Below are positions 4,776 through 34,518 of a stretch of 64,000 nt of DNA, one piece after another (the first letter of the stretch is position 1; every line of letters starts with the position of its first letter). Under the pieces are notes generated by a model. That model did not search any database, had not been told where the DNA came from, and saw nothing but the letters and a program-made list of their open reading frames with translations. The translations under genes and the position numbers were made by a program. The stretch comes from an uncultured Gammaproteobacteria bacterium (lineage in GTDB: Bacteria > Pseudomonadota > Gammaproteobacteria > JAURND01): contig CAVQQD010000001.1 of the NCBI GenBank assembly GCA_963714975.1, positions 1 through 64,000 of the forward strand, written 5' to 3'.

Positions 4776-4995
4776 TTGGATTCCAGCCCTGACGGAGTTC
4801 TTTGAGGGCCTGCCGACGCGTCCACCATGTACACTGATCTTTTAACTGCTTGATTATAAAAGAGTTGGTAGCGCTAACGGGGATCGAACCCGGATTTTCC
4901 GCCTTTTAGTAGTTTCTTTAAGTTACTGAAATCGCAATCGCACGAACCGACCAGTTCGCAGGAATCTCAGGTCGCTTGTACAAAATCTATACACG
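4776..4995 (-). repeat. attP-like repeat copy A (tRNA 3'-half core at 4866-4905)
   Basis: Reverse strand reads tttgtacaa..ctgagattcctgcga..tttcagtaactta..aaggcggaaaatccgggttcgatccccgttagcgctacca..aatcaagcagtta..tgtaca..ggctggaatccaa, shared with copies B and C. Confidence 0.85.
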
Positions 4996-5276
4996 GGTTG
5001 CGCCGAGGTTCATTAGTGTTTGGCGCGGGGCTTCGGCGCTACGCAAAAGTGACCCGGTAGAGCTTGGTTGAAGTGACCCGCGCTGGGAACGGAACTGAGG
5101 ACACGATCGGGATCGGAGGGCATCATCCACGCCGAAGGCGTGTTGGGGCGGGCTGTGATCGTGGTTCGGTTACCCTGCGGTTAGGTGGGGAGGAGATGGC
5201 GATATCATCCACGCGCAGGCGTGCGGGTTGGTTTCCATCATCCGCGCCTGAGGCGCGGCGTGACGAGGGACAGGCT

Positions 5277-5609
5277 TTAACGCGGTGACCGGATCCGTGC
5301 GAGCTTGTTGCGGAGATATTCGAAGTAGTCCGGGCTGACGCGCAACTCCAGCACTTCCTCAACCACCGGCAGGAAGTAAGCCAGCGAGCGAATCGTGCTC
5401 AAAGGTGGCGCATCGGCCGGCCGAATCAGGCGGCGCGTCGCCGCCAGCACCAACGCGTTTTCAATCACCTGCAACGAAAGGCCGCGTTGATACAGTTGCG
5501 CCGCCAGCAGCCGGTCCGCACGGCGGACTGTTCCCATCGTGCCCGGCGTCATCCGATACGCGTCCAGCACTTGACGAACATATGCTTCCTGACTCAGGCC
5601 GTTGTCCAC
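5277..5609 (-). CDS. Conserved passenger protein downstream of istB (replication-protein C-domain-like)
   Basis: 110 aa, 10 bp after istB stop; aligns by eye with the C-terminal half of 19509-20197. Confidence 0.7.
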   Translation of the reverse strand: MDNGLSQEAYVRQVLDAYRMTPGTMGTVRRADRLLAAQLYQRGLSLQVIENALVLAATRRLIRPADAPPLSTIRSLAYFLPVVEEVLELRVSPDYFEYLRNKLARIRSPR

Positions 5610-5619
5610 CCCGTTGTCC

Positions 5620-6345
5620 TCAGCCTTGCAACTCGCGCAGCGACGGACCTTTGATGTGCACGGTGTGGCAGTAATGCCGCAGACGGCTCAGCAACGCTTC
5701 CACCATGGGCCGACTGCCCAGAAAGTTCGGCCATTCGTCATAGACCAAGTTCGTAGTGATGATGGTGGAATGCTGGCGGTAGCGCTCTTCCATCAGCTTG
5801 AAGAAAATGTTTGACTGCTCGGGTTTCAGATTCAGATAGCCCAGCTCGTCGATCAGAAGGCAGTCCAGGCGCGCCAGGCGTTTGAGCAGTTGCCGCGTTG
5901 AGCGGTCGGCCAGTGAGGCATACATCTCGTCGAACAGATCCTGGGCCTTGATGAATTGGCACCGGTAGCCGTTCTCCAGCGCCTTCAGCAACAGACCGCA
6001 AGCCAGTCCTGTCTTGCCCCTTCCGGTTTCACCAACCAACACGATATTTTCTGTCTTGGTGATGAACTCCAACTCCGCAAACTCGCGGATCTGCTTCCGG
6101 TTCACACCTGGCTGGCGGGCGAAGGGGAACGTTTCCAGCGTCCATCGCTCGGGCAAATTGGCGCGCCGGATGCGCCACTCGAGTGCGCCCTCCTGCTTGG
6201 CCTGCCACTGCGCACGCACCAGGCGCGTGACGAAATCCGAGTAGCTGATGTCGTCCGTATCGGCGGCGCGCAACTGTTCGTCGTAGATTTCCAGAATGCG
6301 TCGCAGCTTAAGATTCTTCAGCAGTTGTTCCAGTTCTTCAGTCAT
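5620..6345 (-). CDS. istB: IS21 helper AAA+ ATPase IstB
   Basis: Walker A GETGRGKT, Walker B LLIDELGY, IITTN, ALLSRLRH. Confidence 0.93.
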   Translation of the reverse strand: MTEELEQLLKNLKLRRILEIYDEQLRAADTDDISYSDFVTRLVRAQWQAKQEGALEWRIRRANLPERWTLETFPFARQPGVNRKQIREFAELEFITKTENIVLVGETGRGKTGLACGLLLKALENGYRCQFIKAQDLFDEMYASLADRSTRQLLKRLARLDCLLIDELGYLNLKPEQSNIFFKLMEERYRQHSTIITTNLVYDEWPNFLGSRPMVEALLSRLRHYCHTVHIKGPSLRELQG

Positions 6346-7741
6346 CTTCCTGTGGCTCCCTGTCGAGCAGAAAATATTCGCGGGTCACGCGCCGCAGGAT
6401 CATCCGTTCCAACCGATCCAGGTCATAGAGACCATAACGGGCGGCATCGCGCACCGCTCCCACCAGTGGTTCTCGCGGATACTCGCGCACGAACCGCAGC
6501 AGTTGCCGCAGGGCAAGCGTCACCACCTTGCGGCTGCGTTGCTTCAAGGCCGCCACATATTCGGCCAGTTCCGGTGCGGCGCTGAGGATAGCGTTCTCTT
6601 CCGGATGCGGATCGGGCCGCGGCGCCCGCTGGCCCCGCGGCGGCCGGTGCTCCGCCAGCATTACCCGCTGGTGCTCAGCTTCCGCGACGCGGCGATGCAC
6701 CACCAGACGCCGGGCATCCAGTTGAATCTCGATCTTGTCCTTGGTCTCGCGCACTTCCACCCGCCGGCCGATCCAATCCACCGGTACCGAGTAGCGGTTG
6801 GTGTGCAGCACCACATACCCTTCGATATCCACCAGGCGCTGATGCAGCCGGTAGACTTCCGGAATCCACGCCGGCAGCGGCTTCAGATGCAGTCGCTCCA
6901 TGGCGAATAACTCGCGCGGCACTGCGCGGAGGTGTTTCTTGTAAGTCGCGTTGACCTTATCGCACCACTCTCGCGCTTGTCGGTTCAGATCCTCCCAACT
7001 GGCGAAGGTGCGCCCGGCGAAGAAGTTGTGTTCTACGAAATGAAAGGGCCGTTCTACGCGCCCCGAACGATTGGCATTACCAATAGCGTGCGCCACCCAC
7101 TCGAAGCCGAAGCGCTCGCCAAAAGCCGCCATCTCCGGCACTGGCACCATCTCGCGTCCGCTGCCGCGCAGCACCACCACATGCGTGTTATCGATCATCA
7201 CGCGGCGAGTGACACCGCCTATGTAGCGCAACGCGTCGGTGAGAAACACCTTGCAGTCGAAGCGCTGGAACGTCGGATAACACTGGAAAAACAGTATCCG
7301 CGAGTAACACAGCACGGCCGAGGCGGTCTGTACCTTGCGTTTCCTTCCAGCCAGTTCCACCTCGTGCGGAGAGGTATCATGCTGGAGTTCCTCACCCGGC
7401 GCAAAATCATACTGTCCCGCCACTACCGGGGGCTGGTATCCGATCCCGTGCCGCCGGCAGAAGGCTGTCAACGCGGCATACGACAACTCCACGCCGCCCG
7501 CCTGCAACTCCTCATGGACTCGCACGAGATTCCCCTTGCACTGGTCGAAAAGCTCCAGGATCTGTTGGCGGTACGGCTCGGCTTTCTCCGGCCGCCGCAG
7601 TTCCGGAACGGTCGTGGAATTCGAGCGCAGAACTTTCCGCACGGCCACGCGGGAGACCCCCAGCACTCGTGCAATCTCGCGTTTGGCCACTCCCTGCCTG
7701 TGCCGTTCCAGAATCGCGGTCCGTTGTGCTTGGCTCAACAT
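6338..7741 (-). CDS. istA: IS21-family DDE transposase IstA
   Basis: N-terminal HTH, PGEELQHD, IDNT, SGRVERPF, NRYSVP; overlaps istB start. Confidence 0.92.
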   Translation of the reverse strand: MLSQAQRTAILERHRQGVAKREIARVLGVSRVAVRKVLRSNSTTVPELRRPEKAEPYRQQILELFDQCKGNLVRVHEELQAGGVELSYAALTAFCRRHGIGYQPPVVAGQYDFAPGEELQHDTSPHEVELAGRKRKVQTASAVLCYSRILFFQCYPTFQRFDCKVFLTDALRYIGGVTRRVMIDNTHVVVLRGSGREMVPVPEMAAFGERFGFEWVAHAIGNANRSGRVERPFHFVEHNFFAGRTFASWEDLNRQAREWCDKVNATYKKHLRAVPRELFAMERLHLKPLPAWIPEVYRLHQRLVDIEGYVVLHTNRYSVPVDWIGRRVEVRETKDKIEIQLDARRLVVHRRVAEAEHQRVMLAEHRPPRGQRAPRPDPHPEENAILSAAPELAEYVAALKQRSRKVVTLALRQLLRFVREYPREPLVGAVRDAARYGLYDLDRLERMILRRVTREYFLLDREPQEDD

Positions 7742-8618
7742 GGGGTGTTTGCTCCGATGGAAGGTTTTCGCCGATGCGGCGGAGTTGTGTTTGTAGGTGC
7801 TCGATCTGATGCCGTGCGGCCTGGCATTGCCGGTGATCCAGTGCCAGCACCGCGGCACCGGCCAACTGCCGTTGCGCGCGATTCACGATGGCCGCGGCCA
7901 TATCCAGATGACGCAACAGTTCAGCCCCAGCCGCAGACGGGGCTTTCATCTGCGCCTGCCGCTGCGCCTTGAAGAACAGCTCAGGATCATCCAGAATGCG
8001 TTTGCGGATGGCGGGCGAGCCTTGGCGCCAGGCGGCGTAAAGTTGGCTGGCTTCCCGCGTATCGCAGTGGTGCTCGGCAAAGATAGCCGCCATCCGCTGG
8101 CAGTCCTCGAGGCTTTGCCGCGCTGTCGGCACCAGAAACCTCATGGCCACCTGCGCCGCGACTCGCCCCTCGCGCACCTGCTGTTGGATCGTTTCCGGCA
8201 GAACCTCCACCAGCGCCAGCCTCCGCGACACCCAGCTCACGCTGCGGTCGAAGCGCCGGGCTAACTCCTCCAATCCATAACCGAAGCGCTTCTCCAACTC
8301 CGCCAACAGCCAACCCATTTCCAACGCCGTCTCGTGTTCGGACATGCGCAACGAGTGGTCCAGCAGCACGGCCGCAGCCTCACTCATCGGCCACACCACT
8401 GCCTCTACGGTGTCCCGGCCTAACTGCTCCAGCGCCGCGATCCGCTTATAGCCGTCGATGACCACGTAATGCTCGGCCTGGCTTTCGGTGGCTACCACCA
8501 CAATGGGGGTTTGCTGTCCGGCCTCCGCCAGCGACGCCAACAAGCGCCGTTGCCGCGCTGGATGGCGCACCCGCAAGTGCTCCCAGCGCCGGTCGAGCTG
8601 ATGAAACTCCAGTTGCAT
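7512..8618 (-). CDS. ParB/Spo0J N-terminal-domain protein with HTH
   Basis: SLAEAGQQTPIVV, VIDGYKRIAAL, HTH LEELARRFDRSVSWVSRRL; tail overlaps istA by about 230 nt. Confidence 0.85.
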   Translation of the reverse strand: MQLEFHQLDRRWEHLRVRHPARQRRLLASLAEAGQQTPIVVVATESQAEHYVVIDGYKRIAALEQLGRDTVEAVVWPMSEAAAVLLDHSLRMSEHETALEMGWLLAELEKRFGYGLEELARRFDRSVSWVSRRLALVEVLPETIQQQVREGRVAAQVAMRFLVPTARQSLEDCQRMAAIFAEHHCDTREASQLYAAWRQGSPAIRKRILDDPELFFKAQRQAQMKAPSAAGAELLRHLDMAAAIVNRAQRQLAGAAVLALDHRQCQAARHQIEHLQTQLRRIGENLPSEQTPHVEPSTTDRDSGTAQAGSGQTRDCTSAGGLPRGRAESSALEFHDRSGTAAAGESRAVPPTDPGAFRPVQGESRASP

Positions 8619-8668
8619 CGACAGGCTGAATGTACGGTGACTTCTCGGTGGCAATCAATATGTCCGGA

Positions 8669-9161
8669 TTAAATGCGCGCCTGTTTCCAGCGCCGTTCGC
8701 GCTCCTGAACGCGTTCCAGCGCTCGCCGGCACGCTGCGCAACAGAAGCGCTGCAAGGGGCTTCGCCGCTGCTCTGCAAAGCTCTCATAGCACCCCGGCCG
8801 GTCGCACGTCTGGGCGAAAAAAATGTTCCTCAGTGATTACCCTCGCTGGCTCGCTAACTGCCTCTGGCTCTGCCGGTTTCCGGCTCTTGACCTGCTCCCG
8901 GTAGCGCCGGCTTTGCCCCTTGCGTTTCTCTCGGCCCGCCGTCGTTTCCCGGTATCGTTGCTGCGACTTCCACCGCGACCACCTCCGCGCCTGTTCCCGA
9001 CACTCGTCGCTGCAGTACCGCTGCCGCGCTCGCCGCGGATGAAACTTCTGTTCGCACCCTTTCAGCAGACACGTGCGTCGCCGCGGCCGCCGTGTCCGGC
9101 GTTTGGGTCGGCGCGCCACTTGATTTTGGCGATGACGTGTAGGACTCTCGGAAGGGCCCAT
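8669..9161 (-). CDS. Basic tandem Zn-finger-like protein, frameshifted at a T7 run
   Basis: CLLKGC..YCSDEC; after the shift at 8817-8823, CDRPGC..FCCAAC; stop at 8669. Confidence 0.6.
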
Positions 9162-9383
9162 GGGAGGTGATGACTCCCTGAAGCCCATGCCCTGGAGAGG
9201 GACTCTCTCCTCTCCGGGGCGCAGACCTCCGGCTCACAGCAAAACCAACACTCTAACGGAAAACGATGATTGCTGCTGCGGAAGGCCCCGTTCCTCTCAG
9301 GCGGTCAGGCGTCAGCGCTCACTACAGACTGTCTGGGTCACTCTTGGAAAGCACAGGTGGTCACTTCTCGAAAGCGCCGAAGC

Positions 9384-10464
9384 CCTCAGTATCCCGGGTC
9401 CAGATCGCACCAACTTTGGCATTTTCCTTGATTCCTCTCCAGATCGATGGGGACGGGTCCTCATGCAGAAACGGGAAAACCTACGAGCGCGCCAGCAGGC
9501 ACGCAAAGCCCGATCGTTGACCGAGTGGGATTTCCTGCTCGGCGTTCACGACGAAACTCGGCTGGGCGCGCTCCGCTTCCGAGATCCGGATTCCGGGCAA
9601 TTCATCGACAGTGACGATCAGTTAGCGGCACCGCCGATCACGTCGTTACGCGACCTTCAGGCCGCGAGCCTTGAGTTCGAAATCCACGCGGAGGATGAAG
9701 AGCATCCTGACTATCAACGATGGCTCGCGCAATTGTTTGCGCCAGGAACATCTTTGGGTGGCGCACGTCCCAAAGCATCCGTCAGAGACGAAGACGGCGC
9801 CCTCTGCCTGGCGAAGTTTCCCAGCCGACAGGATCGGCGTGATGTGGGCGCCTGGGAGTTCGTTGCCCATCGCCTGGCCGCCAGAGCAGGCATCAACGTT
9901 CCGCCAACCCGAGCATTGCGTGTGCCGGAGAGCGCGTATACGACATTCCTCGCGAAAAGATTTGATCGCACTCCCGAGAATCGACGATTGGCATTCGTAT
10001 CAGCGATGACGCTGACGCAACGGAGGGACGGAGAGCCCGGTGCAAGTTACCTCGAACTGATCGACCTGTTGCAATCGCAGGGCGCCAATACCCGCGAAGA
10101 CTCCAGAGAGCTCTTCCGCCGCGTCGTCTTCAGCATTCTGATTCACAATACTGACGATCACCTGCGCAATCATGGGTTCTTCATCGGCGAGCGAGGGATT
10201 ACCCTTTCTCCAGCGTTCGATCTGAATCCTTCGATTGAGCGGGACGAACTCTCACTGGCGATTAACGAAGTCGATTCCGCCTGCGATGTCTCAATCGCCC
10301 TGGAAGCTCACCGGGAGTACGGGATGTCGAAGACTGAAGCGGAAGAAATCGTCGCTCGGACAAGCCGGGTAGTCGCGGAGTGGAGGCACGAAGCAGGCAA
10401 GCTTCGCATCCCTAAAGCGGAGCAGAAGTTAATGGCGCCAGCATTCGAGACGGCGGCCCCATGA
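9384..10464 (+). pseudogene. hipA: HipA-domain kinase toxin, 5'-truncated and interrupted
   Basis: FLDSSPDRWGR, GTSLGGARPKA, AKFP, KRFDR, NTDDHLRNHGF, LSPAFD; only about 6 upstream codons survive at 5013-5030. Confidence 0.88.
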
Positions 10465-10615
10465 AATACCCCGCGAGAGCCACATTTTTCAGAACGTCGG
10501 GCCCTCGGCAATTCCGAAAACCGTTGGCCCAGTCCGTGTACATGCTTTGTACAAACAGGTCTGAGATTCCTGCGAAGACGGGTGATTCCTGCGATTTCGA
10601 TTTCAGTAACTTATA

Positions 10616-12066
10616 CCTGAATCCGGCGTGAAAACGATGGCAGGAATGTGCCTGTGGCCCTGTTGACAGGGGGGTCGAAGCACTTTTTAGATTCGCGCGT
10701 TAACCTAACTTTTGGTGAGGTTAACGTGGGAATACGCAGGTCGCCAAGAAATCTACGAATCGCCTGTGATCACAGGGGTCTGACGCACTTCGGTGGCGTG
10801 TATTTCTTTCATGAATTTCTACAGGTGCTGAAGATCCGCCGATTCCTGACCCAGAATCTCGACTACCCACGGCGCAATCAGCGATACAGTTTGGCGCAGA
10901 TGATTCTGGCTTTGGTCTACCCCTTAGTGCTGGGTCTGGATCGCCTGGAGACCGCGTCATTCCTACGTTCCAACGGCACGTTTCAATATTTGACCGGGCT
11001 GCAAAGCTTCCCCGATCCGCAGACGTTGCGCCGTTTCTTGCTGCAGGCTCCCGACTCATTCTTACGGCAGATGCACCGCGCAAATGATCGACTGCTGCAG
11101 AACTTCATTCAGCTACCCAGCCACCGATCTCGCCTGATCTTCGATCTCGACAGCACCGTGGTCACTGTCTTTGGGCGTCAGCAGAAGGCAGAGGTCGGCT
11201 ACAATCCCCGTTATCGGGGCAAGCGTTCCTACAATCCGCTATTGTGCCTGGAGGCCAACTCCTCCTATCTGTGGGATACCGAACTGCGGCCAGGCAATGC
11301 TGGCACATGGGATGGCAGCGTTGAAGTGTTGGCGTCTTGTTTCGTCAACATACCATCGGATATTCGGGAGCTGCGCGTGCGGGCGGATGCCGGGTTTGGT
11401 TTCAATCCGGTCCTGGAGATTCTCGAGGCCAGAGCCGCGCGGTATGCGGTCGTGGCCCGCCTGACCCAAGCATTCAAGCGATTGCTTCCGGGCTTACGAT
11501 ATGAATCCGTCAACAAGGAGTGGGAGATGGCCGCGTTCGATCACCGATCCCACGGTTGGCCGCACGCCCGTCAATTCGTGGTGGCACGAAGATTCATTCC
11601 CGACGATGAAGTTGAAACCACGCTCTTCACCATGGGTCGCTACATGTATCGCGCCTGGGTAACCAATATGGATCTGACGCCGGCCGGCATCTGGCATTTT
11701 TATGACGGGCGTGCCGCTATGGAGCCAAGGATCTGTGAACTACGCGAAGATTATGCATTGCGGAAGATCCCGACCTCCTCGTTTGCGGCCAACGCGCTGT
11801 ACCTGGAAATCATTCGGCTTGCCTACAACTTGGTCACTGCGTTTCAGCGGAATTGCCTGGAGGAATCCTGGCAGAGCTTGACGCTTCAAAAGCTACGCTA
11901 CAAACTGTTCTTGCTCCCAGGTGAACTGACTCGCCCCCAGAACCGCCCAGTTCTTCGCCTCCGAGAGTCGCCGCTGCTACAGAATCTGACTAATGACATC
12001 CTGCGCAAGGTTCACCGACTGAAACCGATCCAGATCTAGAAACGCAATCTTCACGCCGGATTCAGG
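10616..12066 (+). mobile_element. IS1380-family element, complete
   Basis: 17-bp IR cctgaatccggcgtgaa/ttcacgccggattcagg; 5-bp target duplication TTATA at 10611-10615 and 12067-12071. Confidence 0.95.
10726..12039 (+). CDS. IS1380-family transposase
   Basis: LTHFGG, FDLDSTV, GYNP..GKRSYNPL, LRPGN, VRADAGF, FYDGRAAME. Confidence 0.93.
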   Translation: MGIRRSPRNLRIACDHRGLTHFGGVYFFHEFLQVLKIRRFLTQNLDYPRRNQRYSLAQMILALVYPLVLGLDRLETASFLRSNGTFQYLTGLQSFPDPQTLRRFLLQAPDSFLRQMHRANDRLLQNFIQLPSHRSRLIFDLDSTVVTVFGRQQKAEVGYNPRYRGKRSYNPLLCLEANSSYLWDTELRPGNAGTWDGSVEVLASCFVNIPSDIRELRVRADAGFGFNPVLEILEARAARYAVVARLTQAFKRLLPGLRYESVNKEWEMAAFDHRSHGWPHARQFVVARRFIPDDEVETTLFTMGRYMYRAWVTNMDLTPAGIWHFYDGRAAMEPRICELREDYALRKIPTSSFAANALYLEIIRLAYNLVTAFQRNCLEESWQSLTLQKLRYKLFLLPGELTRPQNRPVLRLRESPLLQNLTNDILRKVHRLKPIQI

Positions 12067-12397
12067 TTATAGAGAACACGAGAAGGGGGAAATCCGGGTT
12101 CGATCCCCGTTAGCGCTACCAACTCCCGTGGAATCAAAAACTTAGAATTTGGCCGTACCAAGGCTGGAATCCAAAAGGATTCGGACAGTGGGGAGCCGGG
12201 GATTGCGCCTTTGATGTTAGCCGCAAAGGAAAATTACTGCCAAGAATTCAGCAAATCAGCATATACTATTGTGGCCGAACGATCCGCGTCGTTGACCGAT
12301 TCACGCCGGTGTGTGTGGTCACTCTCGCGGGCCTTCAGTAACCGCAGTCGCGAACCGAGCGTACGCCTGCCAATTCAGTGCCCAGTGCCGCTGAGCC

Positions 12398-12868
12398 TCA
12401 ACCGTACGTAAGGTCGGTGCTCTGGCCGACCTCAATGATATAACCGTCAGGGTCGCGAATATAGCAGCGCGTTTCGCCATATTTCGGAATCGGCTCGGTG
12501 AGGAACTCGGCCCCTCGACTTTTCCATAATTTGTAGCAAGCCTGAATGTCCGCTACCCTGATATTCATAAAGCTGTTGATCTTATTCGGGTCGGGGACGC
12601 TTAGCGTTACCGTCGGCTTGTTCACGGTAGGCCCACCTCCGACGTTGACAAGCAGCCACGTATTCGCGATCTGAACGTAGGCAGGCGCGCCTTCGCTGTC
12701 GCCTCTGCTCAGGATGCGGCCATCAAAGACCTTTTCGTAGAAGCGAGCTGATCGGTCGATGTCGGCTACGGTAAGGAAATGTGCAACGCTGAACCCCTCC
12801 CGCGGGGGCATCTCATAGCTTTTTTGTTCAATTTGTACGCTGTTCATTGACGACTCCATGTTTTTCAT
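12398..12868 (-). CDS. VOC/glyoxalase family protein
   Basis: LTVADIDRSARFYEKVF, CYIRDPDGYIIEV. Confidence 0.9.
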   Translation of the reverse strand: MKNMESSMNSVQIEQKSYEMPPREGFSVAHFLTVADIDRSARFYEKVFDGRILSRGDSEGAPAYVQIANTWLLVNVGGGPTVNKPTVTLSVPDPNKINSFMNIRVADIQACYKLWKSRGAEFLTEPIPKYGETRCYIRDPDGYIIEVGQSTDLTYG

Positions 12869-12908
12869 TCCGATTCTCCTTGTCCCCACTCGCGGGCGAG
12901 CGTTCCCA

Positions 12909-13763
12909 TTAGCCGCCCGGGAATCCAAACATCAACCACGACTGGTTGGCTGCCCAGTGGGGGTAGAGCCTGGTCATATGGTCGAACAACTCTTTGTCAG
13001 ACGCCGTGCTCTGCCGCAGTCGGTCAAAGTCGAGTAGATATTGTTTCGTGTCCTCGATCGCCGACGGCGAGTCGGGCGCACCAGGCTTCTTGTGACCGGC
13101 GACAACTATCGCCGGCTTCAGCGCTGCCAGCCGGTCCAGCGCCGCGACCCAGTTCTTGCGGCTCTCGGGCGTGGTGTCGCCGACATACATGTGGCACTGG
13201 TTGTAGACCACGTCGCCAGCGACGACCAGGCCGATCGATGGAACGTATAGAGACGTCGTATCGGCGCTATCGGTGTGGCCCTGCTCGAGAATGCGTAATT
13301 CCTGGCCCTCCAGAGTGAACCTGTCGTGCTCATAGGCCTGGGGTGCAACAAATTTAGTAGCCAATTGCCCGGGAAACAATCGGCGCGCAAGCCGCTCTAC
13401 CGGGGGAGTGAAAGACGCCTGCATCGCGCTCAAGGTCTTGGACGTTGCTATCGCCCGAGCGCCAGGGAAACGGTCGAGCAGAATGCTCAGACCGTAGAAG
13501 TGGTCAAAATGCCCGTGCGTTATATAGATGGTTTCGAGGTTGCGGTTGTGCAGGGCAACCCAGTCAGCGAGCGTCTCCGCCTCAGCCACGGTCGTCATTG
13601 CATCGACCAGCACAGCGTCGTATTCGCCGAAGATTAGGGTCAACGTCATCGGGTCGAAGCCAAACGCTTCGCCGAAGGGCTTTGGCGGCTCGCCTACCAT
13701 CACCTTGCCCGGCGCTGTAAAAACGTTAACGCCAAGCGTGTTCGACGTGACGGGGACTGTCAT
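12909..13763 (-). CDS. MBL-fold metallo-hydrolase
   Basis: THGHFDH, GHT, AGDVVYN, VAGH. Confidence 0.92.
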   Translation of the reverse strand: MTVPVTSNTLGVNVFTAPGKVMVGEPPKPFGEAFGFDPMTLTLIFGEYDAVLVDAMTTVAEAETLADWVALHNRNLETIYITHGHFDHFYGLSILLDRFPGARAIATSKTLSAMQASFTPPVERLARRLFPGQLATKFVAPQAYEHDRFTLEGQELRILEQGHTDSADTTSLYVPSIGLVVAGDVVYNQCHMYVGDTTPESRKNWVAALDRLAALKPAIVVAGHKKPGAPDSPSAIEDTKQYLLDFDRLRQSTASDKELFDHMTRLYPHWAANQSWLMFGFPGG

Positions 13764-14629: not shown

Positions 14630-14654
14630 GAGATTGAATTCCACCACGCGACCT

Positions 14655-16340: not shown

Positions 16341-16347
16341 TTGCCTA

Positions 16348-16913
16348 GCAACTAGCACCGGACTACTTCCCGAACAGAGCCTGGGGGACTCCCCCTCGAC
16401 AACCGCGATCTTTTTAGTGCGGTTACGCTGCAGCCGGGAGTCGCGCCTAACCCCAGCAGTGGTCCTTCGTTGCTTTCGAGCGGCAAGTCCGCGCAAGTGG
16501 CAATCAACGGCTCACGTCCGCTATTCGCCCGCGGGTGCTTCCGGATTTTTTCTCGGGCTGAATGAACTTGCCGAGGTCCGCGTTCTCACTCAAACGTTCA
16601 ACGCGGAGTACGAGGGGCATGGCGGAGCAGTTATCGAGATGGTCACCAAGTCAGGCAGTAACCAATTTCACGGATCCTTGTGGGAGTTGCATCGGGATGC
16701 GTCGATCGACGCTAAGAACTATTTTGATTTGGGCAAAAGTCCGATTCCGCAATTCGTTCGGAACCAGTTCGGCACCGGAATTGGAGGGCCGCTCAAGCGC
16801 GATCATACGTTCTTCTTTGTAAACTATGAGGGGCTTCGCGAAGTACAGGCGACCACGGCGATCGCCACGGTACCCAACGCCCTCGCCCATCTAGGACTGC
16901 TGCCATCCTCTAG
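16348..16913 (+). pseudogene. TonB-dependent receptor fragment 3 (plug and early barrel), cut by IS
   Basis: PLDNRDLF..LQPGV, EVRVLTQTFNAEY, VTKSGSNQFHGS, RNQFG..GGPLKRD. Confidence 0.8.
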
Positions 16914-17077
16914 TCTAGAGTTTTGCACTTTTTGAAGGCTCGCGTCCCCTGGCCGTAGCTTGTTCCGCTTGGCTCCGCCCTTGGAAACCGCTGCCGTTTG
17001 CTCCAAACATTTTTTGACGTTTTGTCAGTTTTCTCTTGCATCCAAGGCTGATTTATGATATCTTTCATAGTTAATAA

Positions 17078-17422
17078 ATGAAAGATAAGGTTGCTCAACT
17101 TACCGCTTCACGCAAGCAACTCATTCAGAAGATGCCTGACCCTTCCGCCATCTTGCCGGGTTCCTTATTGAGCCGTATGGTGCGCTGTAATAAGCCCGGT
17201 TGCCGTTTTTGCGAGAAGAGCAAGGGCAAAGGCCACGGACCGATCTGGATTCTCTCCGTCAGTCTCGGCAATCGCCAGGTACGCCAAGTCCCCATCCCCA
17301 GCGAGCTGAAAGAAGAGGTGGAGGAAAGCCTGCGCGCGTTCGCTCAGACGCAAGCACTACTGAAGCAGATCGCGCAAGTGAACTTCGAGCTTTTGAAGGA
17401 ACGTAAGCGCCAGCGATCGTAA
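17078..17422 (+). CDS. DUF6788-like small transposon accessory protein
   Basis: GSL..RCNKPGCRFC..GHGP; directly upstream of the transposase. Confidence 0.75.
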   Translation: MKDKVAQLTASRKQLIQKMPDPSAILPGSLLSRMVRCNKPGCRFCEKSKGKGHGPIWILSVSLGNRQVRQVPIPSELKEEVEESLRAFAQTQALLKQIAQVNFELLKERKRQRS

Positions 17423-17481
17423 GGTCTTTTTTTTGCGCTCTTTATCTTTCATTTATTAGAAATGAAAGAAAAGGACGCTCG

Positions 17482-18486
17482 ATGCCCGATCTCTTGGTCC
17501 GTTCCTTCGCTCCACTCCTGCTCGCTTTTCAATCGTGCTTCACTCAGCCGAGCTTCCAGTCCTTCTGGGCCGTGACCTGCGCCTGGATCCTCTGCTCGGG
17601 CCGCCGTTCCCTCACTCGCATCATTCAATCCGGGCAACTGACCGAGTTCAAACACTACTGCTCGTTCCATCGCTTCTTCAGCCAGGCCCGTTGGAGCCTT
17701 GACGATCTGGGCCACTGCGTCTTCCAACTCCTGTTACCTTTTTGCGCAGAGGTTCTGGTCGCTGCGGTCGACGATACCTTGGCCCGCAAATCCGGGCGCC
17801 ACATCTGGGGCGCCGGCATGCACCACGATCCCTTGCGTTCTACCCAGAAACGCCCCTTCTTCGCCTTCGGCCACAACTTCGTGGTCTTCTCTTTGCAAGT
17901 GGCCTTGCCCTTCGCTCCTGACAAATACTGGGCTTTCCCCATCCTCGTTCGCATGTACCGCAAGCGCCAGACCAACCAGCGCGCACCCGGCAAAGGGGGA
18001 AAACTGGAGCGCAAACAAACCGGCCAGGCCACCGCCAAGCAATATCGCACCCGTCCCGAACTGGCCCTGGAGATGATTCAGACCGTGGCCAGTTGGATTC
18101 CCCAGCGCATGCTTCGCGTCCTCGGAGATAGCGAGTATGCCGGCCAATCCATTAGCCGCCACCTTCCCCCCAACGCGAAGTTGATCAGCCGCATGAACAT
18201 GAAGGCCGCTCTCTATGAACCCGCCGGGAAGATTGCCAAACGGGGGCGACGCCGCAAGAAAGGCAATCGCTTGCCGAGTCCTCTACAGATGGCGCAAGGC
18301 AAAAAAGCGAAATGGATCAAGACCACCGTCGCGCTCTATGGAAAGCAGGTCAAGCTCTGGTACCAAACCATCGATGCCCTGTGGTACCCCAGCGCCGGCC
18401 AACAACTCCTCCGCATCGTCGTGGTGCGCGACCCCAGCGGCCGCCGCCGTGATGATTGCTTCTTCTCACTGGATCTCGCCCTAACA
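17482..18486 (+). pseudogene. IS701-like transposase, 5' part
   Basis: VDDTLARKSGRHIWG, GHNFV, GDSEY; interrupted after FFSLDLALT. Confidence 0.85.
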
Positions 18487-19344
18487 CCTGAATCCGGCGT
18501 GAAAACGATGGCAGGAATGTGCCTGTGGCCCTGTTGACAGGGGGTCGAAGCACTTTTTAGATTCGCGCGTTAACCTAACTTTGGGTGAGGTTAACGTGGG
18601 AATACGCAGGTCGCCAAGAAATCTACGAATCGCCTGTGATCACAGGGGTCTGACGCACTTCGGTGGCGTGTATTTCTTTCATGAATTTCTACAGGTGCTG
18701 AAGATCCGCCGATTCCTGACCCAGAATCTCGACTACCCACGGCGCAATCAGCGATACAGTTTGGCGCAGATGATTCTGGCTTTGGTCTACCCCTTAGTGC
18801 TGGGTCTGGATCGCCTGGAGACCGCGTCATTCCTACGTTCCAACGGCACGTTTCAATATTTGACCGGGCTGCAAAGCTTCCCCGATCCGCAGACGTTGCG
18901 CCGTTTCTTGCTGCAGGCTCCCGACTCATTCTTACGGCAGATGCACCGCGCAAATGATCGACTGCTGCAGAACTTCATTCAGCTACCCAGCCACCGATCT
19001 CGCCTGATCTTCGATCTCGACAGCACCGTGGTCACTGTCTTTGGGCGTCAGCAGAAGGCAGAGGTCGGCTACAATCCCCGTTATCGGGGCAAGCGTTCCT
19101 ACAATCCGCTATTGTGCCTGGAGGCCAACTCCTCCTATCTGTGGGATACCGAACTGCGGCCAGGCAATGCTGGCACATGGGATGGCAGCGTTGAAGTGTT
19201 AGCGTCTTGTTTCGTCAACATACCATCGGATATTCGGGAGCTGCGCGTGCGGGCGGATGCCGGGTTTGGTTTCAATCCGGTCCTGGAGATTCTCGAGGCC
19301 AGAGCCGCGCGGTATGCGGTCGTGGCCCGCCTGACCCAAGCATT
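18487..19344 (+). mobile_element. Truncated second copy of the IS1380 element
   Basis: Near-identical to the first about 860 bp of the copy starting at 10616; cut by the IS21 end. Confidence 0.93.
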
Positions 19345-19508
19345 TGCGGATTCCGACGATGTGAATAACCGATTCCGGGCTGATGTGAATAATTTCTGAG
19401 CGTCGCGGCGCTGACAGTTTTGATGATGCCGAGATTATTCACATGAGTCAAGCGGCGGGGCCGCCGGAGGCGGCCGGCTTCTTGATGGTGGGGTGTATCA
19501 AACAGCAT

Positions 19509-20197
19509 TATTTCGTAACCCTTATTTCGTCTGATTTGCGCGGGGACTCGAAACCGCGCCATTGCCGTTCGGCGTCCCGGACCCGGCGTTCGACATGCAC
19601 CCAGTAGCCTCGGCGAGATGTCCTGCTTGACCTCATCGAAGAGTGCGGCGAAGTAGCGCAAGCTGGTGATGGGTGTCCCGCGGCCGTTGTTGATCAGTGC
19701 GACGTACTTCCGAAGCGAGCCCAGCAGAATCGCGTGTTCGAGCATCCGCGATGGCCACGCCGGCAGTGGAAAAGCTCGGTCGCGATTTTCTCGTCCGCGG
19801 CAGTGAAAGCGCTCCGGACACAGCGCCGTTCCAGGAAGGCGCGCTTTAGCTGGTTGATATAGGTGGCGAGGTTTTCCGCTTGCTGGCCAGTTGGCGCCCG
19901 CTCGTATGGCCAGTAGCGATCCGCAATCTGAATGGCTCCGTCCGGCGTTGGCTGACCTATTTCAGACTGAAATAGGTCTCGCAGATTTGCGCGGATCTCG
20001 GCTTCCGTCTTGCCCAAGACGCGAGCGATTTCGTTGGGTTCGATCCGGATTGCGCCAAGGCTGCGGTCGGCGTTCAGACAGATCCACATGAACAGCCTGA
20101 ACGCGCCGTCGGAAAGCAGACTGAGCGCTTGAGCGACTTCCTTTCCGGCGGCGAACCAACCGGTTGGCTGTTTGAGTCGTAGCTGTGACCCGGTCAT
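19509..20197 (-). CDS. IS21 passenger: winged-helix N-terminus plus conserved C-domain (frameshifted)
   Basis: ATGA-coupled to istB; LSDGAFRLFMWICLNAD..EIARVLGKT; LEHAILLG..ITSLRYF..DEV; 3' end approximate. Confidence 0.7.
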
Positions 20198-20949
20198 TGC
20201 GGTTGCTCCTCGCGGGGTTTTCGGCCGCGCTTCTTGCGGATCGATTCGCCGTTGAGTTCGATGCGGTAGGCATTGTGAACCAGGCGGTCGAGAATGCTGT
20301 CGGCGACGGTGGGATCGCCGATCTGTTCGTGCCAGTGCGCGATCGGCATCTGCGAAGTCAGGATCATGGAGCGGCGCTGATAGCGGTCATCGCAGATTTC
20401 CAGAAAGTCGCGGCGCTCGTTGTCTTTCAGCGGAGCCATGGCGAAGTCGTCGAGCACGAGCACATCGATGCGCGAGAGTTTCAGCAGCACCCGGCCGATG
20501 CTGCCGTCCACATGGGCGACCGCGAGATCGCGGAACAGTTCGGTCGTTCTTTTGTGCAGGACGGAGAAGCCGTCACGGCAGGCTTTCTGCGCCAGGGCGC
20601 AGCCCAGCCAGGTTTTCCCGATGCCGGTGGGCCCGATCAGCAGAACGTTCTGGTGCTGGCGAACCCATTCGCTGTTGGCCAGCGTCCGCATGAGTTTGCG
20701 GTCGAGGCCGCGCGGGTGCTGGTAATCGATGTCTTCGATGACGCCGCGCTCCTTCAGACGGGCGGATTGAAGACGGCGCGCCAGCGCCCGGTTCTCTTTC
20801 CATAGCCACTGCTGATCGACGAGCATGCCAAAGCGCTCTTCGAAGCCGAGCTGGCTCGTGTCGGTGGTTTCCAGTTGAGCGCGGAAGGCGTCGGCCATTC
20901 CGTGCAGTTTCATGGTGTGCAGTTTTTCAATCGTCGGTTGATTCAACAT
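20194..20949 (-). CDS. istB: IS21 helper ATPase IstB
   Basis: GPTGIGKT, LVLDDF, ILTSQ, ADSILDRLVHNAY. Confidence 0.95.
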   Translation of the reverse strand: MLNQPTIEKLHTMKLHGMADAFRAQLETTDTSQLGFEERFGMLVDQQWLWKENRALARRLQSARLKERGVIEDIDYQHPRGLDRKLMRTLANSEWVRQHQNVLLIGPTGIGKTWLGCALAQKACRDGFSVLHKRTTELFRDLAVAHVDGSIGRVLLKLSRIDVLVLDDFAMAPLKDNERRDFLEICDDRYQRRSMILTSQMPIAHWHEQIGDPTVADSILDRLVHNAYRIELNGESIRKKRGRKPREEQPQ

Positions 20950-20973
20950 GTGTTCTCTCCTTGGGGTTGTGGT

Positions 20974-22547
20974 TTACTGCAGCAGAGTGGTCGGCGGATC
21001 GTAGTAATGAGCGCCGCGAACGTTTTCATGCTGGGGGCCGGGCCTTTCCGGCTCCAGCGCGAGGGTGGTCTGCCGATCGAGCGAGCGTTTCAGAATGGAC
21101 TTCAGGCTTTGATAGGAGCAGGCCTGCGAGTGCGAGTGCGCGCTGGCTGGCGGCTTCGAGCCGCGCGATTGGAGTAGGTCTTGCCCAGGCGCATGATTCC
21201 CAGGCAGGCGCGATAGCCCATCTCGGGATGCGGCTTGCTTTCGAGGATCGTGCGGACCACTTGCGCGGTGGCCTCGCCCACGGTTTCGGCCCAGTGAATC
21301 AGCCGCGAAGGCGTCCACTCCAGATGCGCCTGATGGCTCTTGGGCATGTGCTCTTGAACCGTGGTGTGCCGGTAAGCCGCGGAGCTGCGCAGATGCGAGG
21401 CGACGCGCTTGCCGAATGGAAGATCTCGACGGTGCGTGGCGGTGAAGCGCGCTTCCAGTTGCTGGCCGGCAAGCTGGTAGGGAACGCTGTAGTAATGACG
21501 GTCGATCTCGACGTGATAATCGATGTTGGCGCGGACCGTTTTCCAGTCGGCGATCACATAGCGTTCGGCGGGCAGCGGCTGCAGAGCGGGCCGGTCCACT
21601 GCGGCGAACAGCGAGGCGCGCGTGCCTTCCCGTTTGCGGAAGGGCCGGTGGTTGAGCCGTTCGAGCAGCTGGCCGATGGCCTCGATTCAGTTCCGCCAGC
21701 GAGAAGAACTTGTGGTGCCGCAGCGCCGCCAATATCCAGCGCTCCACGAGCAGAACGGCATTTTCGACTTTGGCTTTGTCTCTCGGTTTATAGGGCCGCG
21801 CCGGCATGACGGCGATGCCGTAATGCTGCGGCCATCTCGTGATAGGTGCGATTGAGATCCGGCTCATAGCGGCAGGCGCGGTCGACGCCGGTCCGCGGGT
21901 TATCCGGCACGATCAGCTTGGTGGTGCCGTGGAAGAACTCGAAGGCGGCAATGTGGCAGTCGATCCAGTTCGCCAGATCCTGGCTCCAGGCGGCTTGCGC
22001 GAAGGTGTAGGTGCTGGCGCCGAGCACGGCGACGAAGAGCGAAGCCGGCGTGACATCGCCGGTCTGGCGATCGTGGATCGGCACCGTGGGGCCGGCCCAG
22101 TCGACGAACATCTTCTCGCCGGGCTTTGTGTCCTGCCGGAGCACGACGTTGTGATTCCGGTTCCACCGCTGATACAGCTCGCAGAAACGGCTGTAGCCGT
22201 AGCCGTCCGGTTGCGTTTCGCGATACTCTTCCCAGAGCAACTGCAGGGTCACATGTTTGTGACCTTTGAGCTGGCGATGGATTTCGGCGAAGTCCAGGCC
22301 CGGCCGCGAGTTGCTGAGGCGGGCATACGCGGCCGCGTCGGAAACAGCAGCTCATTGAGCCGCCGGTCGTCGCAATCGTCCGGCAACGGCCAAGTCAGGC
22401 CGGCGGCGGCGGCTCTTTCCAGATACCGATGAACGGTCGCCTGACCGATCGAGCAACTGCGGGCGATCTGGTCCTGTCCCAGGCCCAGACCGAACCGCAG
22501 ACGTAGAACTTCCTTGATTTTTCGCATAGACAACCTTTCTGGGGCAC
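20974..22547 (-). CDS. istA: IS21 transposase IstA (several frameshifts)
   Basis: [41 protein letters not shown] in successive frames. Confidence 0.9.
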
Positions 22548-22773
22548 TCAGTTCCCTCCACTTGCCAGTGGAGACAACCGGCGCCCCCTGTTGTCCAGCG
22601 CCGCCGCTCAGATGAAGTTCTTTTCAGAAAATCATTCCGGGGATGTGAATAACGATTCCGGGCCGGGCCGAATTTTTCATCCACTTCGGCCCCGGAATCG
22701 ATTATTCACATCGCCCGGAATCCGTTATTCACATCGCTCCGGAATGATTATTCACATGCCCCGGAATATAGCA

Positions 22774-23145
22774 GCCACGCAAATTCTGGAGATCTTTCCT
22801 CGACGTTGGCCCTTGGAGATTTGCTTCCGCGACGTCAAGCAGTTTCTCGGCTTCGAAGATCCACAGAACCGTGTGGCTGACGCAGCTAAACGCACTGCTC
22901 CCCTAATCTTTTATATCTACGACCTGGTCCTGCTCTGGTACGCGCATTCGGGACATCAACTGGCAGCGAAGTCCGCTCTCGACCGCTTATGGTATCCGAA
23001 AAAAGTCTCGGTTTCCTTCGAGGACATTCTTCGGACCTTACGTCGCGCGACCTGGCAGGAAAGGATTTTCAGTGACTCCGCTCTAGATGCACACACGCGA
23101 AAACTCCTCCAACCCTTTGTGGAATGGGCGAAAGGGCTGGCGTAA
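22774..23145 (+). pseudogene. IS701-like transposase, 3' part
   Basis: ATQILEIF.RRWPLEICFRDVKQ.LG; joins in frame with 18486. Confidence 0.85.
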
Positions 23146-23162
23146 AAGTGCAAAACTCTAGA

Positions 23163-24137
23163 CTAGGACACCGCGCTTAAGGATGGTGCGAAAGATAAAT
23201 CAACCCCAGAGACCTTGACGACGGCCTGCCACGCAGCCTCTTGGCTGGCGCGATCGTGGAGGTGCGGCTGGCGCTGCAGCTCAATCGGGCCGGAGAACTT
23301 TCCTTGTGCCGAAGCGAAGAATTGCCCTGAGACGTCGGTACCAAATTCCGACGCCCGGAGGTAGCGACGGGCCGCGGTCTCCGGCGTCTGATTCATACCA
23401 GGGATGAGGTTCATGATTGGGATCATCAGATACTTCAACGCGAAGCCAGCGCTTCGCACCACCTTGGTCGCGGTCGCGCCACCGGGCGACACGGCGTACA
23501 CAGCCATGCCGGAGGGCAGCCGGCGAGCCAGAGCCGCGACCCACCACGCGATAATGAGCTTCGCGTCGGCATACGCATTGTTGGGCACGTACTTCACGTT
23601 CGGCCCGTTGCGTATCAGGGCTTCGACAGCGGCGGTTCGGTGGCCTTGGTGGTATTTGGCCGCGAAGGCTGGCAGGTCGGTGTATTTGAACATGGGTACG
23701 CCCCCGCGAGCAGGTTCTGCGCCTGCGATAACAATTCGCGCGCTGGGACTCAGCAGGTTGGCGCGGAGCAATCCAACAGCCAGTTGATGATGGCCGATGA
23801 GCGGTGCCTGAGAAGCTTCCATGCCCTCCGCAGTGAGCGCCCGCTTTTTGAAGGGGACCAACCCGGCATTGAGCAGCAGGAAATCGATCTGCTGACCTCG
23901 TTTGACCAGTTCGGCGACGGCGGACTGAACGCTGGACTGCGAGTCCAGATCCAGCTCCAGCGGCGTGAAGATCTTTTTCTTGGTCTCAGCCGCGAGTTGA
24001 GCAGCCGTTTGCTGGACCCGGGCCAGGCTGCGCCCGGTGACGATGACCTGTTTATAGCCCTTGGCGGCGAGCAAGCCGGCTGCCGCATAACCGAGCCCGG
24101 ACGTGGTGCCGGTGACGAGCGCGAACGAATCTTTCAT
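23163..24137 (-). CDS. SDR family NAD(P)-dependent oxidoreductase
   Basis: VTGTTSGLG, LLNAG, YADAK, VSPG. Confidence 0.9.
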   Translation of the reverse strand: MKDSFALVTGTTSGLGYAAAGLLAAKGYKQVIVTGRSLARVQQTAAQLAAETKKKIFTPLELDLDSQSSVQSAVAELVKRGQQIDFLLLNAGLVPFKKRALTAEGMEASQAPLIGHHQLAVGLLRANLLSPSARIVIAGAEPARGGVPMFKYTDLPAFAAKYHQGHRTAAVEALIRNGPNVKYVPNNAYADAKLIIAWWVAALARRLPSGMAVYAVSPGGATATKVVRSAGFALKYLMIPIMNLIPGMNQTPETAARRYLRASEFGTDVSGQFFASAQGKFSGPIELQRQPHLHDRASQEAAWQAVVKVSGVDLSFAPSLSAVS

Positions 24138-24262
24138 GGCGTCTCCATGGTGAAGGGTGAATCTCGAAGGGGCCCCGCGAGGCAGGCGCCACCTTGTAAT
24201 TTTGAACTGTTCAGTTCTATATTGATTGGTACGATGGAAATTGTCAAGGAGTTTTAAACTGA

Positions 24263-24877
24263 ATGGTTCAGAATACCCCTAAGCCGCGTGGACGGCCGCG
24301 TAGCTTCGACGAGACGGGGGCGCTGGAAAAGGCGACTCAGGTGTTCTGGTCGAAAGGCTACGACGGCGTGACGATTGACGATCTGGTCGCCGGGATGGGT
24401 GTCGGACGGCCAAGCCTGTATGCCTTCTTTGGTGACAAGCGGGCGATATTCCTGCGTGTCCTCAAGGCGTATGCCGAGGCGAAGGGCGCTCGCGCTGCGA
24501 AGGCGCTCCTCTCTCCACAGAGTCTCCGCGACTCGATCGCGGCCTTTCTGAGGTACGCCGTCGAAAGTGCGACCGAGAAAGGGTCCGCCCGGGGCTGCCT
24601 TCTGATTTGCGTCGCGCCACTCGTGGACGATGCTGAGGTTAAGCGGTTCCTGCAGAACGCGGTCGCGGGCGGCGCGGCGCTGGTGGAAGGCCGTTTCCGG
24701 GACGCGATCAGCGCAGGCGAAATCCCGTCCGACTTTCCGGTGGTCGAACGCGCGACCCAAGTCACGGATTTTGCTCGTGCCCTGACGATGCGTGCGCTGA
24801 TAGGCACGCCGCGCAAGACGCTCCTCAAAGATGCTGAGGAAGCGACCGACTTGGTGCTCCTGTCACGGCGCGTCTGA
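24263..24877 (+). CDS. TetR/AcrR family regulator, divergent from the SDR gene
   Basis: RGRPRSFD, FWSKGYDGVTIDDL..MGV.RPSLYAFFGDK, GCL. Confidence 0.93.
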   Translation: MVQNTPKPRGRPRSFDETGALEKATQVFWSKGYDGVTIDDLVAGMGVGRPSLYAFFGDKRAIFLRVLKAYAEAKGARAAKALLSPQSLRDSIAAFLRYAVESATEKGSARGCLLICVAPLVDDAEVKRFLQNAVAGGAALVEGRFRDAISAGEIPSDFPVVERATQVTDFARALTMRALIGTPRKTLLKDAEEATDLVLLSRRV

Positions 24878-25194
24878 CGACGCGCCCGAGCGAAGGACTG
24901 TTGCGAGTCTGACCCTGCTGGCTCCCTGCTGGCCCCGTGATGACGACCGTTCGCCCCGCTCAAGCGCAGATCGAGGCTCTGGGGGGCGGTCATCCCGAGC
25001 CAGAACAGCGCCCATGGGCTACACGTCCACTTCAAGCATCGCATCGCTTCCGAGCATGACCAGCAACTCGATCATTGCCCGTCGGGCGTATTCTCCTTCA
25101 TCCATTTCGGGGAAGAGTTTCCTCACTTACGGTAGATGTGGTCTTCGTGGTCGTTTTGGCTGAACTCGTTTTCCATTTCAGTTCTCCCGTACTC

Positions 25195-25350
25195 AATTAA
25201 GCTTGAGAAAATCTCCAAACCGCTCGGCAGCCACGCCGAGGGCGCGCGCCAGACTGAGCTTTGCCACGTTAGGGGCGAAAACGCTGATTGATGTAGTCCA
25301 GTTAGGCTCCGGCGACCGCGTCCTGTGCCTGCATCATCCGCGTGCTCAAC
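25195..25350 (-). pseudogene. TolC-family outer-membrane efflux protein C-terminal remnant
   Basis: QAQDAVAGA*LDYIN then, after a shift, VFAPNVAKLSLARALG. Confidence 0.55.
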
Positions 25351-25649
25351 CAGGGGTTGTCGGCGGTCGAGACGGCGCCGCCGCTTGGCTCGGTCCCGCG
25401 GACCACCTTGATGGCTCGGTTGAACAAATTGGGATCGTACGTGGTGAGCGATACCAATCCGCAGTCACCATAGGCTAACGTGACCGCCGGAAGAATTTTT
25501 CGCACAGGTGTAGGGTGCTGTCAGGAAGAAGAAGCTTCAGCGAGGGTTGGGGTGCGATCGCCGTAAGCGACAGCTCTCCGTGGATGCTCGTCGATCCATA
25601 GCACCGAGTGTCGTCCCCTTCGGGAACGCGAAAACCTCCTGCAAGACGG

Positions 25650-25868
25650 CGTACAGGATTTGTACAAAAGGCCTGAGATTCCTGCGAACACGGTGGTTCC
25701 TGCGATCGCGGTTTCAGTAACTTACACAAAACACTAGAAGGCGGAAAATCCGGGTTCGATCCCTGTTAGCGCTACCAACTATTTTAAAATCAACTACTTG
25801 CAAAAATGCCTGTACATGGTAGGCCCCGCGGACACCGCGATGAAGATGGTGCCAAGGCTGGAATCCAA
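25650..25868 (+). repeat. attP-like repeat copy C (core at 25738-25777)
   Basis: Same motif order as copies A and B, including aaggcggaaaatccgggttcgatccctgttagcgctacca and aatcaactacttg. Confidence 0.85.
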
Positions 25869-27108: not shown

Positions 27109-27169
27109 TTCGAGAGATCCTCCTGCCTGGCCGAAGACGATCCTTTTCGGCCAGGCAGGATTCATCATA

Positions 27170-34514: not shown

Positions 34515-34518
34515 GAGG

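Follow-up and report, generated by a model that had tools for sequence, protein, structure and literature searches.

What does a run of attachment-site-like units mean when no integrase lies among them? The question is raised by the first 64,000 nucleotides (nt) of contig CAVQQD010000001.1 (hereafter the window, meaning this whole stretch), from assembly GCA_963714975.1 of an uncultured Gammaproteobacteria bacterium, in which three diverged copies of one unit (A, B and C) divide a series of cargo genes. An earlier reading made from the letters of the DNA (the sequence-only reading) proposed non-autonomous cassettes mobilized in trans, an integron-like array built on tRNA attachment (att) sites. 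Our analysis indicates that the units are probably what is left of a decayed tandem-accretion array, formed by a family of mobilizable elements that targets tRNA-Glu and inert in the window. This tRNA-Glu element family is of a known kind but is itself apparently new, and the integron-like novelty is not borne out.

Unit A (4776–4995, minus strand) comprises a left (P) arm at 4906–4995, a tRNA-Glu-derived core at 4866–4905 and a right (P′) arm at 4776–4865, the last with an integration host factor (IHF)-like site (AATCAAGCAGTTA), a TGTACA box and GGCTGGAATCCA. Unit B (plus strand) is split by an insertion sequence, at which the left piece of its P arm (10537–10615) ends; the right piece (12067–12174) holds the end of the P arm, the core (12083–12121) and a short P′ arm with GGCTGGAATCCA 40 nt past the CCA. 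Unit C (25650–25868, plus strand) has its P arm at 25650–25737, its core, with a single C-to-T change within the T stem, at 25738–25777 and its P′ arm at 25778–25868. The order of motifs is the same in all three: TGTACA boxes, two ATTCCTGCGA-type boxes, TTTCAGTAACTTA, the core, AATCAA-N4-TTR and GGCTGGAATCCA. WATCAA-N4-TTR is the IHF consensus. Units A and C align over 170 bp (82% identity, E 1.6e-42), and the left and right pieces of unit B are 86% and 88% identical to unit C. The three units, all within 21 kb, are mutually only 80–88% alike. Units B and C are in direct orientation and their cores differ at 1 of 25 positions. Sequence and alignments agree with the sequence-only reading on the three copies, their positions and strands, their motif order and the interruption of unit B. 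The whole 2.56-Mb assembly contains no fourth copy (search at E ≤ 10), the remaining 17 rows of that search being chance matches of 14–22 bp.

The core is the final ~40 nt of an Acidobacteriota tRNA-Glu gene, and the earlier guess of tRNA-Glu was right. Agreement between unit and tRNA runs from AAGGC, in the 3′ strand of the anticodon stem, to the CCA, and the cores of A, B and C are 1–2 of 25 nt away from the tRNA-Glu 3′ end of Acidobacteriota metagenome-assembled genomes (MAGs). A degenerate pattern spanning the T arm and gene end (...GGTTCGANYCC-NNN-TAGCGCTACCA) picked out at least 120 stretches, mostly from Acidobacteriota. Of the 24 loci tested with ARAGORN, 16 have a tRNA-Glu gene (CTC or TTC) called precisely at the match, and the other 8 have a 3′ fragment of tRNA-Glu alone. 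The window's own assembly has no parent for the core: none of its 45 tRNAs matches, and its two tRNA-Glu genes differ from the core in the acceptor stem, ending ...AGGGAGCGCCA. Bryobacterales also carry a second tRNA-Glu junction family, whose left arm, likewise conserved, is a different one and whose right arm is tgttttcatagagttacggg (L043, L056, L087, L114, L118, L126, L131 and others). In this phylum tRNA-Glu seems to attract integration generally.

Relatives of the units are found in Acidobacteriota. A scan for the exact P-arm motif returned 22 stretches from MAGs labelled Bryobacterales, Terriglobia, Solibacteraceae, Acidiferrales and Acidobacteriaceae, and a set of 22 units from 13 genomes retains the unit motifs. 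Across the P arm and core the 21 full units have a mean pairwise identity of 84.8% (range 75–98%, 210 pairs), with nearly invariant boxes and variable spacers. The two ATTCCTGCGA-type boxes, the TGTACA boxes and the WATCAA-N4-TTR match, all retained in the 22 units, may be arm-type repeats and a bending-protein site on either side of the core. The motif GGCNNGAWTCCA is present in the P′ arm of 12 of the 22, either 39–51 or 74–79 nt past the CCA, with window examples at 4776–4790, 12155–12174 and 25856–25868; it resembles the P-arm box GAGATTCCTG and the tRNA T arm (GGTTCGAATCC). Several units may share a contig, and they are in direct orientation in G010, G009, G011 and G417. Among a sample of 401 genomes in the phylum of G010 there were two with a match, G010 itself being one; this is an undercount from which we derive no frequency, as two candidates were scored per genome and the four units of G010 were returned as two. 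The eight other genomes of the window's own family have no match (nine searched including G000), an absence that would be explained by the foreign origin of the DNA block discussed below.

The most complete array is that of G010 (contig C4), where recA is followed by tRNA-Glu (120817–120891) and then by a 401-aa integrase gene starting 51 nt past the CCA. This first element is 41 kb long and encodes the PF00589 integrase, an excisionase-like helix-turn-helix protein, a ParA-like protein and a MobA/VirD2 relaxase, as well as efflux and hydrolase cargo, and it closes in the family P arm. Four units, all direct, stand at 162.1, 165.2, 173.2 and 194.3 kb. The P′ arm of the units can be aligned to the first ~50 nt past the tRNA-Glu gene, a stretch that contains an IHF-like site and a TGTACA box; tRNA-Glu plus the right arm is therefore read as attL, and the unit as P arm–core–P′ arm. 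A 93%-identical relative of the G010 integrase adjoins tRNA-Glu in G011 (contig C102), in the order tRNA-Glu, a P′-like stretch of 50 nt and a 401-aa PF00589 integrase gene. The parent tRNA is thus found with an adjoining tyrosine integrase in both genomes, and their attL sites, together with arms on both sides of the core, favour the earlier assignment of the units to a tyrosine-integrase att layout.

In the mechanism that we favour, A, B and C would be hybrid attachment junctions (P arm, core, P′ arm) of integrative elements that target the 3′ end of tRNA-Glu in soil Acidobacteriota (MAGs of the Bryobacterales/Terriglobia type). Each integration would restore the tRNA gene, so that the next element would enter at the same place and the older ones would be shifted outward, with a P–core–P′ junction remaining between neighbours; following tyrosine-integrase logic, attL would be tRNA plus P′ and attR would be P plus core. 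The junction logic of serial integration is established for tyrosine integrases. Since P–core–P′ junctions result from serial integration at one tRNA, no new mechanism is required. In unit U4 of G010, and in G015 and G418, the family P arm is joined to the P′ arm of another family, which is exactly what the stacking of unrelated elements predicts. The segments between junctions would be passengers or leftovers resembling cis-mobilizable elements (CIMEs), and the window would preserve a decayed part of one such array, with three junctions (one inverted, one split), a truncated hipA and several other insertion sequences.

The cargo carries a signature of recombination at the core. Toxin–antitoxin, detoxification and defence genes are the types found between units, and the integrase-free arrangement noted earlier recurs in the arrays of relatives with varying content. 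In G010 the inner segments hold DoxX–NmrA–TetR (3 kb), AbiEii with a Card1-like protein (8 kb), and a CHAT–TPR protein with IS630 and unknowns (21 kb); no integrase or relaxase was found in these three segments (12 open reading frames (ORFs) sampled). Modules recur in different MAGs, including some labelled as different orders, at 92–97% nucleotide identity. The TetR–NmrA–DoxX module matches between G010 and G014 over 2,953 bp at 96.9%, stopping at 165276/2479; the Fic module is 95–97% identical among six loci from six MAG records (L186, L191, L181, L173, L176 and L166); and the hipBA module is 91–96% identical in four genomes, the window counted among them. On the right, the genomes cease to match at the 3′ end of the core, a hallmark of site-specific recombination at that point. 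The left edges of the common modules are promoters or terminators, not cores. In G012, G418 and G419 the Fic module terminates a larger element, and in G013 it is a 2.1-kb element by itself, which fits deletion.

Several observations weigh against serial accretion followed by decay. One is the inverted orientation of unit A: recombination between inverted sites leaves them inverted, so the 'inversion geometry' that the sequence-only reading saw in A and B explains nothing and another rearrangement is needed. Public sequencing runs, whose share of the stretch is at most 0.12, yielded no excision product, empty site or circle junction. An integrase at least 50% identical to that of G010 is present in only 3 of the 13 P-arm genomes (G010 itself, with relatives of 55–93% identity in G011 and G418); G009, G014, G015 and G420 have only 26–34% relatives, and G012, G013, G016, G417 and G419, which are incomplete MAGs, have none at E ≤ 1e-10. 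With so few such genomes the cognate enzyme is inferred from one array, and the putative link between a G010-type integrase and the family P arm comes mainly from G010. Integrase-free elements of ~2 to 5 kb adjoin an intact tRNA-Glu gene in G013 (a single Fic gene, 2.1 kb), G014 (an unknown gene and DoxX–NmrA–TetR), G015 (MacB, a bare core, then Fic) and G016 (a phosphoesterase and hipBA, 3.3 kb); this is the newest position, where a simple logic of old, decayed elements does not predict them. Finally, the 12 units that carry GGCNNGAWTCCA have a common P′ arm with no integrase behind it, which points to an integrase-less lineage that propagates rather than to separate deletions.

Some of these observations favour a different explanation, in which the modules form a family of non-autonomous cassettes. 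The ~130-bp P arm plus core of each small module would be a recombination site, and an integrase acting in trans would excise the module as a circle and insert it at tRNA-Glu or at another unit. The single-module elements beside tRNA-Glu, the integrase-less P′ type, the near-identity of modules in MAGs labelled as different orders and the integron-like cargo (toxin–antitoxin genes, small redox enzymes with a TetR regulator, defence genes) are all in its favour, and so is the Fic element, which lies beside the tRNA gene in G013 but between two units in G417. If it were true, tRNA-Glu would be an integron-like capture platform at which Fic, HipBA, TetR–NmrA–DoxX and AbiE operons circulate between orders without a recombinase of their own, the integrase coming in trans from a visiting mobilizable element, and the window would be a dead copy of the platform. 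We regard this explanation as unlikely. The P′ arm is not carried along with the cargo: between the Fic elements of G013 and G417, cargo and P arm are 97% identical, whereas the P′ side aligns loosely and with large gaps. The left module edges at promoters or terminators also speak against it, as do the absence of the candidate integrase from most host genomes and of any circle junction in the public runs, and the sites in the window cannot be active. Composite excision with an autonomous neighbour (accretion followed by cis-mobilization) or deletion in place would give the same pictures.

Is the array nevertheless an integron in a broader sense? The two are alike in outline, with ordered small modules parted by recombination sites and newcomers expected at the head, by a fixed site. 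However, there is no integrase at the window array, and the integrase at the head of the G010 array belongs to a 41-kb relaxase-bearing mobilizable element. The sites are ~220-bp two-armed units with direct repeats and no covariation beyond the inherited T arm, unlike attC hairpins, which are short imperfect single-strand palindromes. Integron cassettes are mostly promoterless and point one way, whereas the modules here hold divergent regulator–enzyme pairs (TetR against NmrA–DoxX), with their own regulators and genes on both strands. With these three integron features absent, the array is not an integron, and the interpretation given by the sequence-only reading is supported in part. That reading had also named two outcomes that would tell against it. 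One, that copies in relatives are the ends of integrase-bearing islands, is partly the case, as the P arm that closes the 41-kb G010 element shows; the other, that cargo never varies, is contradicted by the arrays of relatives.

Closer parallels exist among accreted elements at tRNA genes. As described in the relevant part of PMC5704250, a CIME lacks integration and transfer genes, keeps attL and attR, and accretes with incoming integrative and conjugative or integrative and mobilizable elements at tRNA genes. G010 resembles the tandem accretion that this source describes for the Streptococcus ICESt1/ICESt3 family, in that an integrase–relaxase element is followed by integrase-free segments flanked by units, arranged in tandem at a tRNA 3′ end, where chimeric att sites separate adjacent elements. 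In the window, the segment between B and C has direct att flanks and no integration or transfer genes in the ORFs scanned, which are CIME features. The likeness is one of structure, seen in the tandem arrangement of G010, and co-mobilization and an origin by decay are at most suggested by it. Unlike the Streptococcus CIMEs, the elements here have Acidobacteriota hosts, a tRNA-Glu target, up to four junctions and several single-operon segments of 2–3 kb. In Dehalococcoides, according to the sections of PMC3146451 on these islands, tandem islands downstream of ssrA are divided by direct repeats of its 3′ end, with the insertion point in the T-loop region, and 15 islands that have no integration module were proposed as CIMEs. 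Those arrays involve a serine integrase, a 20-bp repeat and, in the same sections, only a 15-bp motif conserved beside it, whereas the units here have a ~220-bp conserved junction with arm repeats to the left and right, and the integrase associated with them is of the tyrosine type. The tycheposons of Prochlorococcus are tyrosine-recombinase elements at tRNA genes whose successive integrations push older ones into the island, leaving partial tRNAs and degenerate remnants scattered through it, as outlined in part of bioRxiv 10.1101/2020.12.28.424599. They are another element family with other hosts and integrases, and the remnants in that account are fragmented rather than intact two-armed junctions around whole small operons. 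Titles in the literature on accretion, CIMEs and Acidobacteria islands at tRNA genes make no mention of this tRNA-Glu family, which at the level of titles is weak evidence that the family is undescribed.

The conserved units might alternatively be the genes, or regulatory parts, of an RNA that resembles a tRNA and is linked to the adjacent toxins, with a GGCGG...GCGCT-ACCA pairing around the T arm acting as a minihelix mimic. HipA, Fic and AbiEii come from toxin families whose action is on translation or nucleotide transfer; several arrays have hipBA or Fic immediately before the P arm; and the T arm with a 4-bp GGCG/CGCT pairing is predicted in all 18 units folded. We consider such an RNA very improbable, however, and set it aside because the consensus fold of the 18 units lacks covariation (covariation term −0.69 kcal/mol; a compensatory change in only 1 of 29 pairs). 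Rfam gave just two chance-level matches, at the gathering score for the whole window and at E ≤ 10 for unit C; the 5′ half of the tRNA is missing; conservation lies in repeated boxes typical of protein-binding sites, with variable spacers between; genuine tRNA-Glu genes beside an integrase have the same core and P′ arm; and unrelated cargo precedes many units. Duplication of one att site within the locus, with no separate integrations, has next to no probability in our view: all three copies lie within 21 kb and none elsewhere in the assembly, but they are too unlike each other (80–88%), each is as close or closer to units of other genomes (unit C is 90% identical to a G014 unit, and the left piece of B together with hipA is similarly close to G011), and arrays recur in unrelated genomes with other cargo.

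Serial accretion at tRNA-Glu thus remains the preferred account, and in the window the resulting array is inert, because it is without a cognate integrase and its assembly is without a matching tRNA-Glu. No tyrosine integrase reaches the Pfam cut-off (PF00589) in 1–64000, where the sole sub-cut-off match (17.5 bits, 42951–43040) is outside the array, and ARAGORN finds no tRNA gene in the same interval, so the earlier statement that neither an integrase nor a full tRNA lies between the copies holds. In the window's assembly, tblastn with the G010 integrase gave a single 37-aa match; with this integrase and the excisionase-like protein it turned up no trace of either in the window or at positions inside the arrays. 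At another locus (L023), an ORF to the right of the core was considered as an integrase and proved to be just a sub-threshold integrase fragment (18.6 bits). Elsewhere, three tyrosine recombinase genes stand in a row in G000 (C1:176604–179032) and a like trio is repeated at many loci in G010; these look like recombinase-in-trio elements.

The interruption of unit B and the truncation of hipA also bar any action. The insertion sequence in unit B (10616–12066, plus strand, 1,451 bp) encodes a transposase at 10648–12039 (PF13701, E 7e-55; PF01609), has perfect 17-bp inverted ends and is flanked by a duplicated TTATA (10611–10615 and 12067–12071); with it removed, unit B regains the consensus spacer. 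A second, truncated copy (860 bp, 99.65% identical) lies at 18486–19344. In L164 (G011:C103) an IS630-type DDE_3 insertion sequence entered a unit at ~4166, independently and ~10 bp from the position taken by the PF13701 element in the window (10611–10616), and two different insertion sequences so close together suggest that the AT-rich spacer of the unit is an insertion hot spot. The 5′ part of hipA (9160–10464, plus strand; Pfam HipA_C, E 1e-46) has been replaced: only residues 79–434, encoded from 9384, match the hipBA module (95.5% to the G011:C103 HipA by tblastn), and the DNA from 9384 to 10615, running from hipA into the left P arm of unit B, is 91.6% identical to G011:C103. There is no hipB upstream of the window hipA; the ORF at 8823–9170 was considered and rejected.

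Several other insertion sequences lie in the locus. Between unit A and hipA lies an IS21-family element (5620–7858, minus strand) with istB at 5620–6345 (Pfam IstB_IS21, E 6.6e-60) and istA at 6338–7858 (Mu-transposase C domain and rve). The integrase-free segment between B and C (12175–25649) has no PF00589 match, and Pfam identified only cargo and transposases among the 14 ORFs scanned there. The cargo consists of a VOC/glyoxalase protein, a metallo-beta-lactamase-fold protein, two TonB-dependent receptor fragments and a partial SDR; the mobile DNA consists of a DDE_5 transposase, the truncated copy of the unit B insertion sequence and a second IS21 istB. Beyond unit C are a partial resolvase, an IS66-family transposase, another DDE transposase and an IS3-like transposase (rve domain). 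The resolvase is part of an ORF at 26089–27168 (minus strand) in which a partial resolvase N-terminal domain (profile positions 48–133 of 145) is joined to a CcbP calcium-binding domain; a deletion probably fused the two.

The whole array lies within a 33.4-kb block at the contig end (1–33366) with a composition foreign to the assembly, which the sequence-only reading overlooked. GC content over 1–32,000 is 57–67%, against 43% assembly-wide, and the tetranucleotide distance is 0.53–0.69, where the genome as a whole has a median of 0.13 (99th percentile 0.485). The eight consecutive 4-kb windows here are the only run above 54% GC in 2.56 Mb, with one lone window at 54.8% on C3. Composition switches sharply near 33,366 (junction 33340–33420), inside a PQQ/sorbosone-dehydrogenase-like gene (~32529–33366) that is truncated at ...HGPRGGDELN and frameshifted once. 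Among its best 80 relatives, 79 are labelled Acidobacteriota MAGs (77–89% amino acid identity), and the median GC at their loci is 60%. None of the 80 loci has a tRNA gene beside the dehydrogenase gene, so the truncated gene is not a marker of the native tRNA-Glu site. On the low-GC side, 37174–38067 (plus strand) encodes a U-box domain protein (PF04564, E 1.4e-17); this ubiquitin-ligase domain is eukaryote-like and unusual for a bacterium.

Judging from its composition and relatives, the block is Acidobacteriota-type DNA that would have reached the assembly through either a chimeric mis-join or a very recent cross-phylum transfer. No public sequencing run contains the window stretch. Short contigs from four soil runs cover parts of the high-GC side of 22000–40000 up to 33,366 with zero differences; none of them extends beyond 33,366, crosses the junction or has a joint at unit C, and this lack of cover proves nothing either way about the origin of the block. 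No gene in the first 33.4 kb should be assigned to the organism until a possible assembly chimera has been considered.

For the Acidobacteriota, a major and little-studied soil phylum, the analysis documents a family of mobilizable elements that targets tRNA-Glu. Its att junctions are well conserved, and its toxin–antitoxin, detoxification and defence modules recur in MAGs from different orders. For finding such islands across the phylum, the conserved 130-bp P arm plus core makes a convenient probe.

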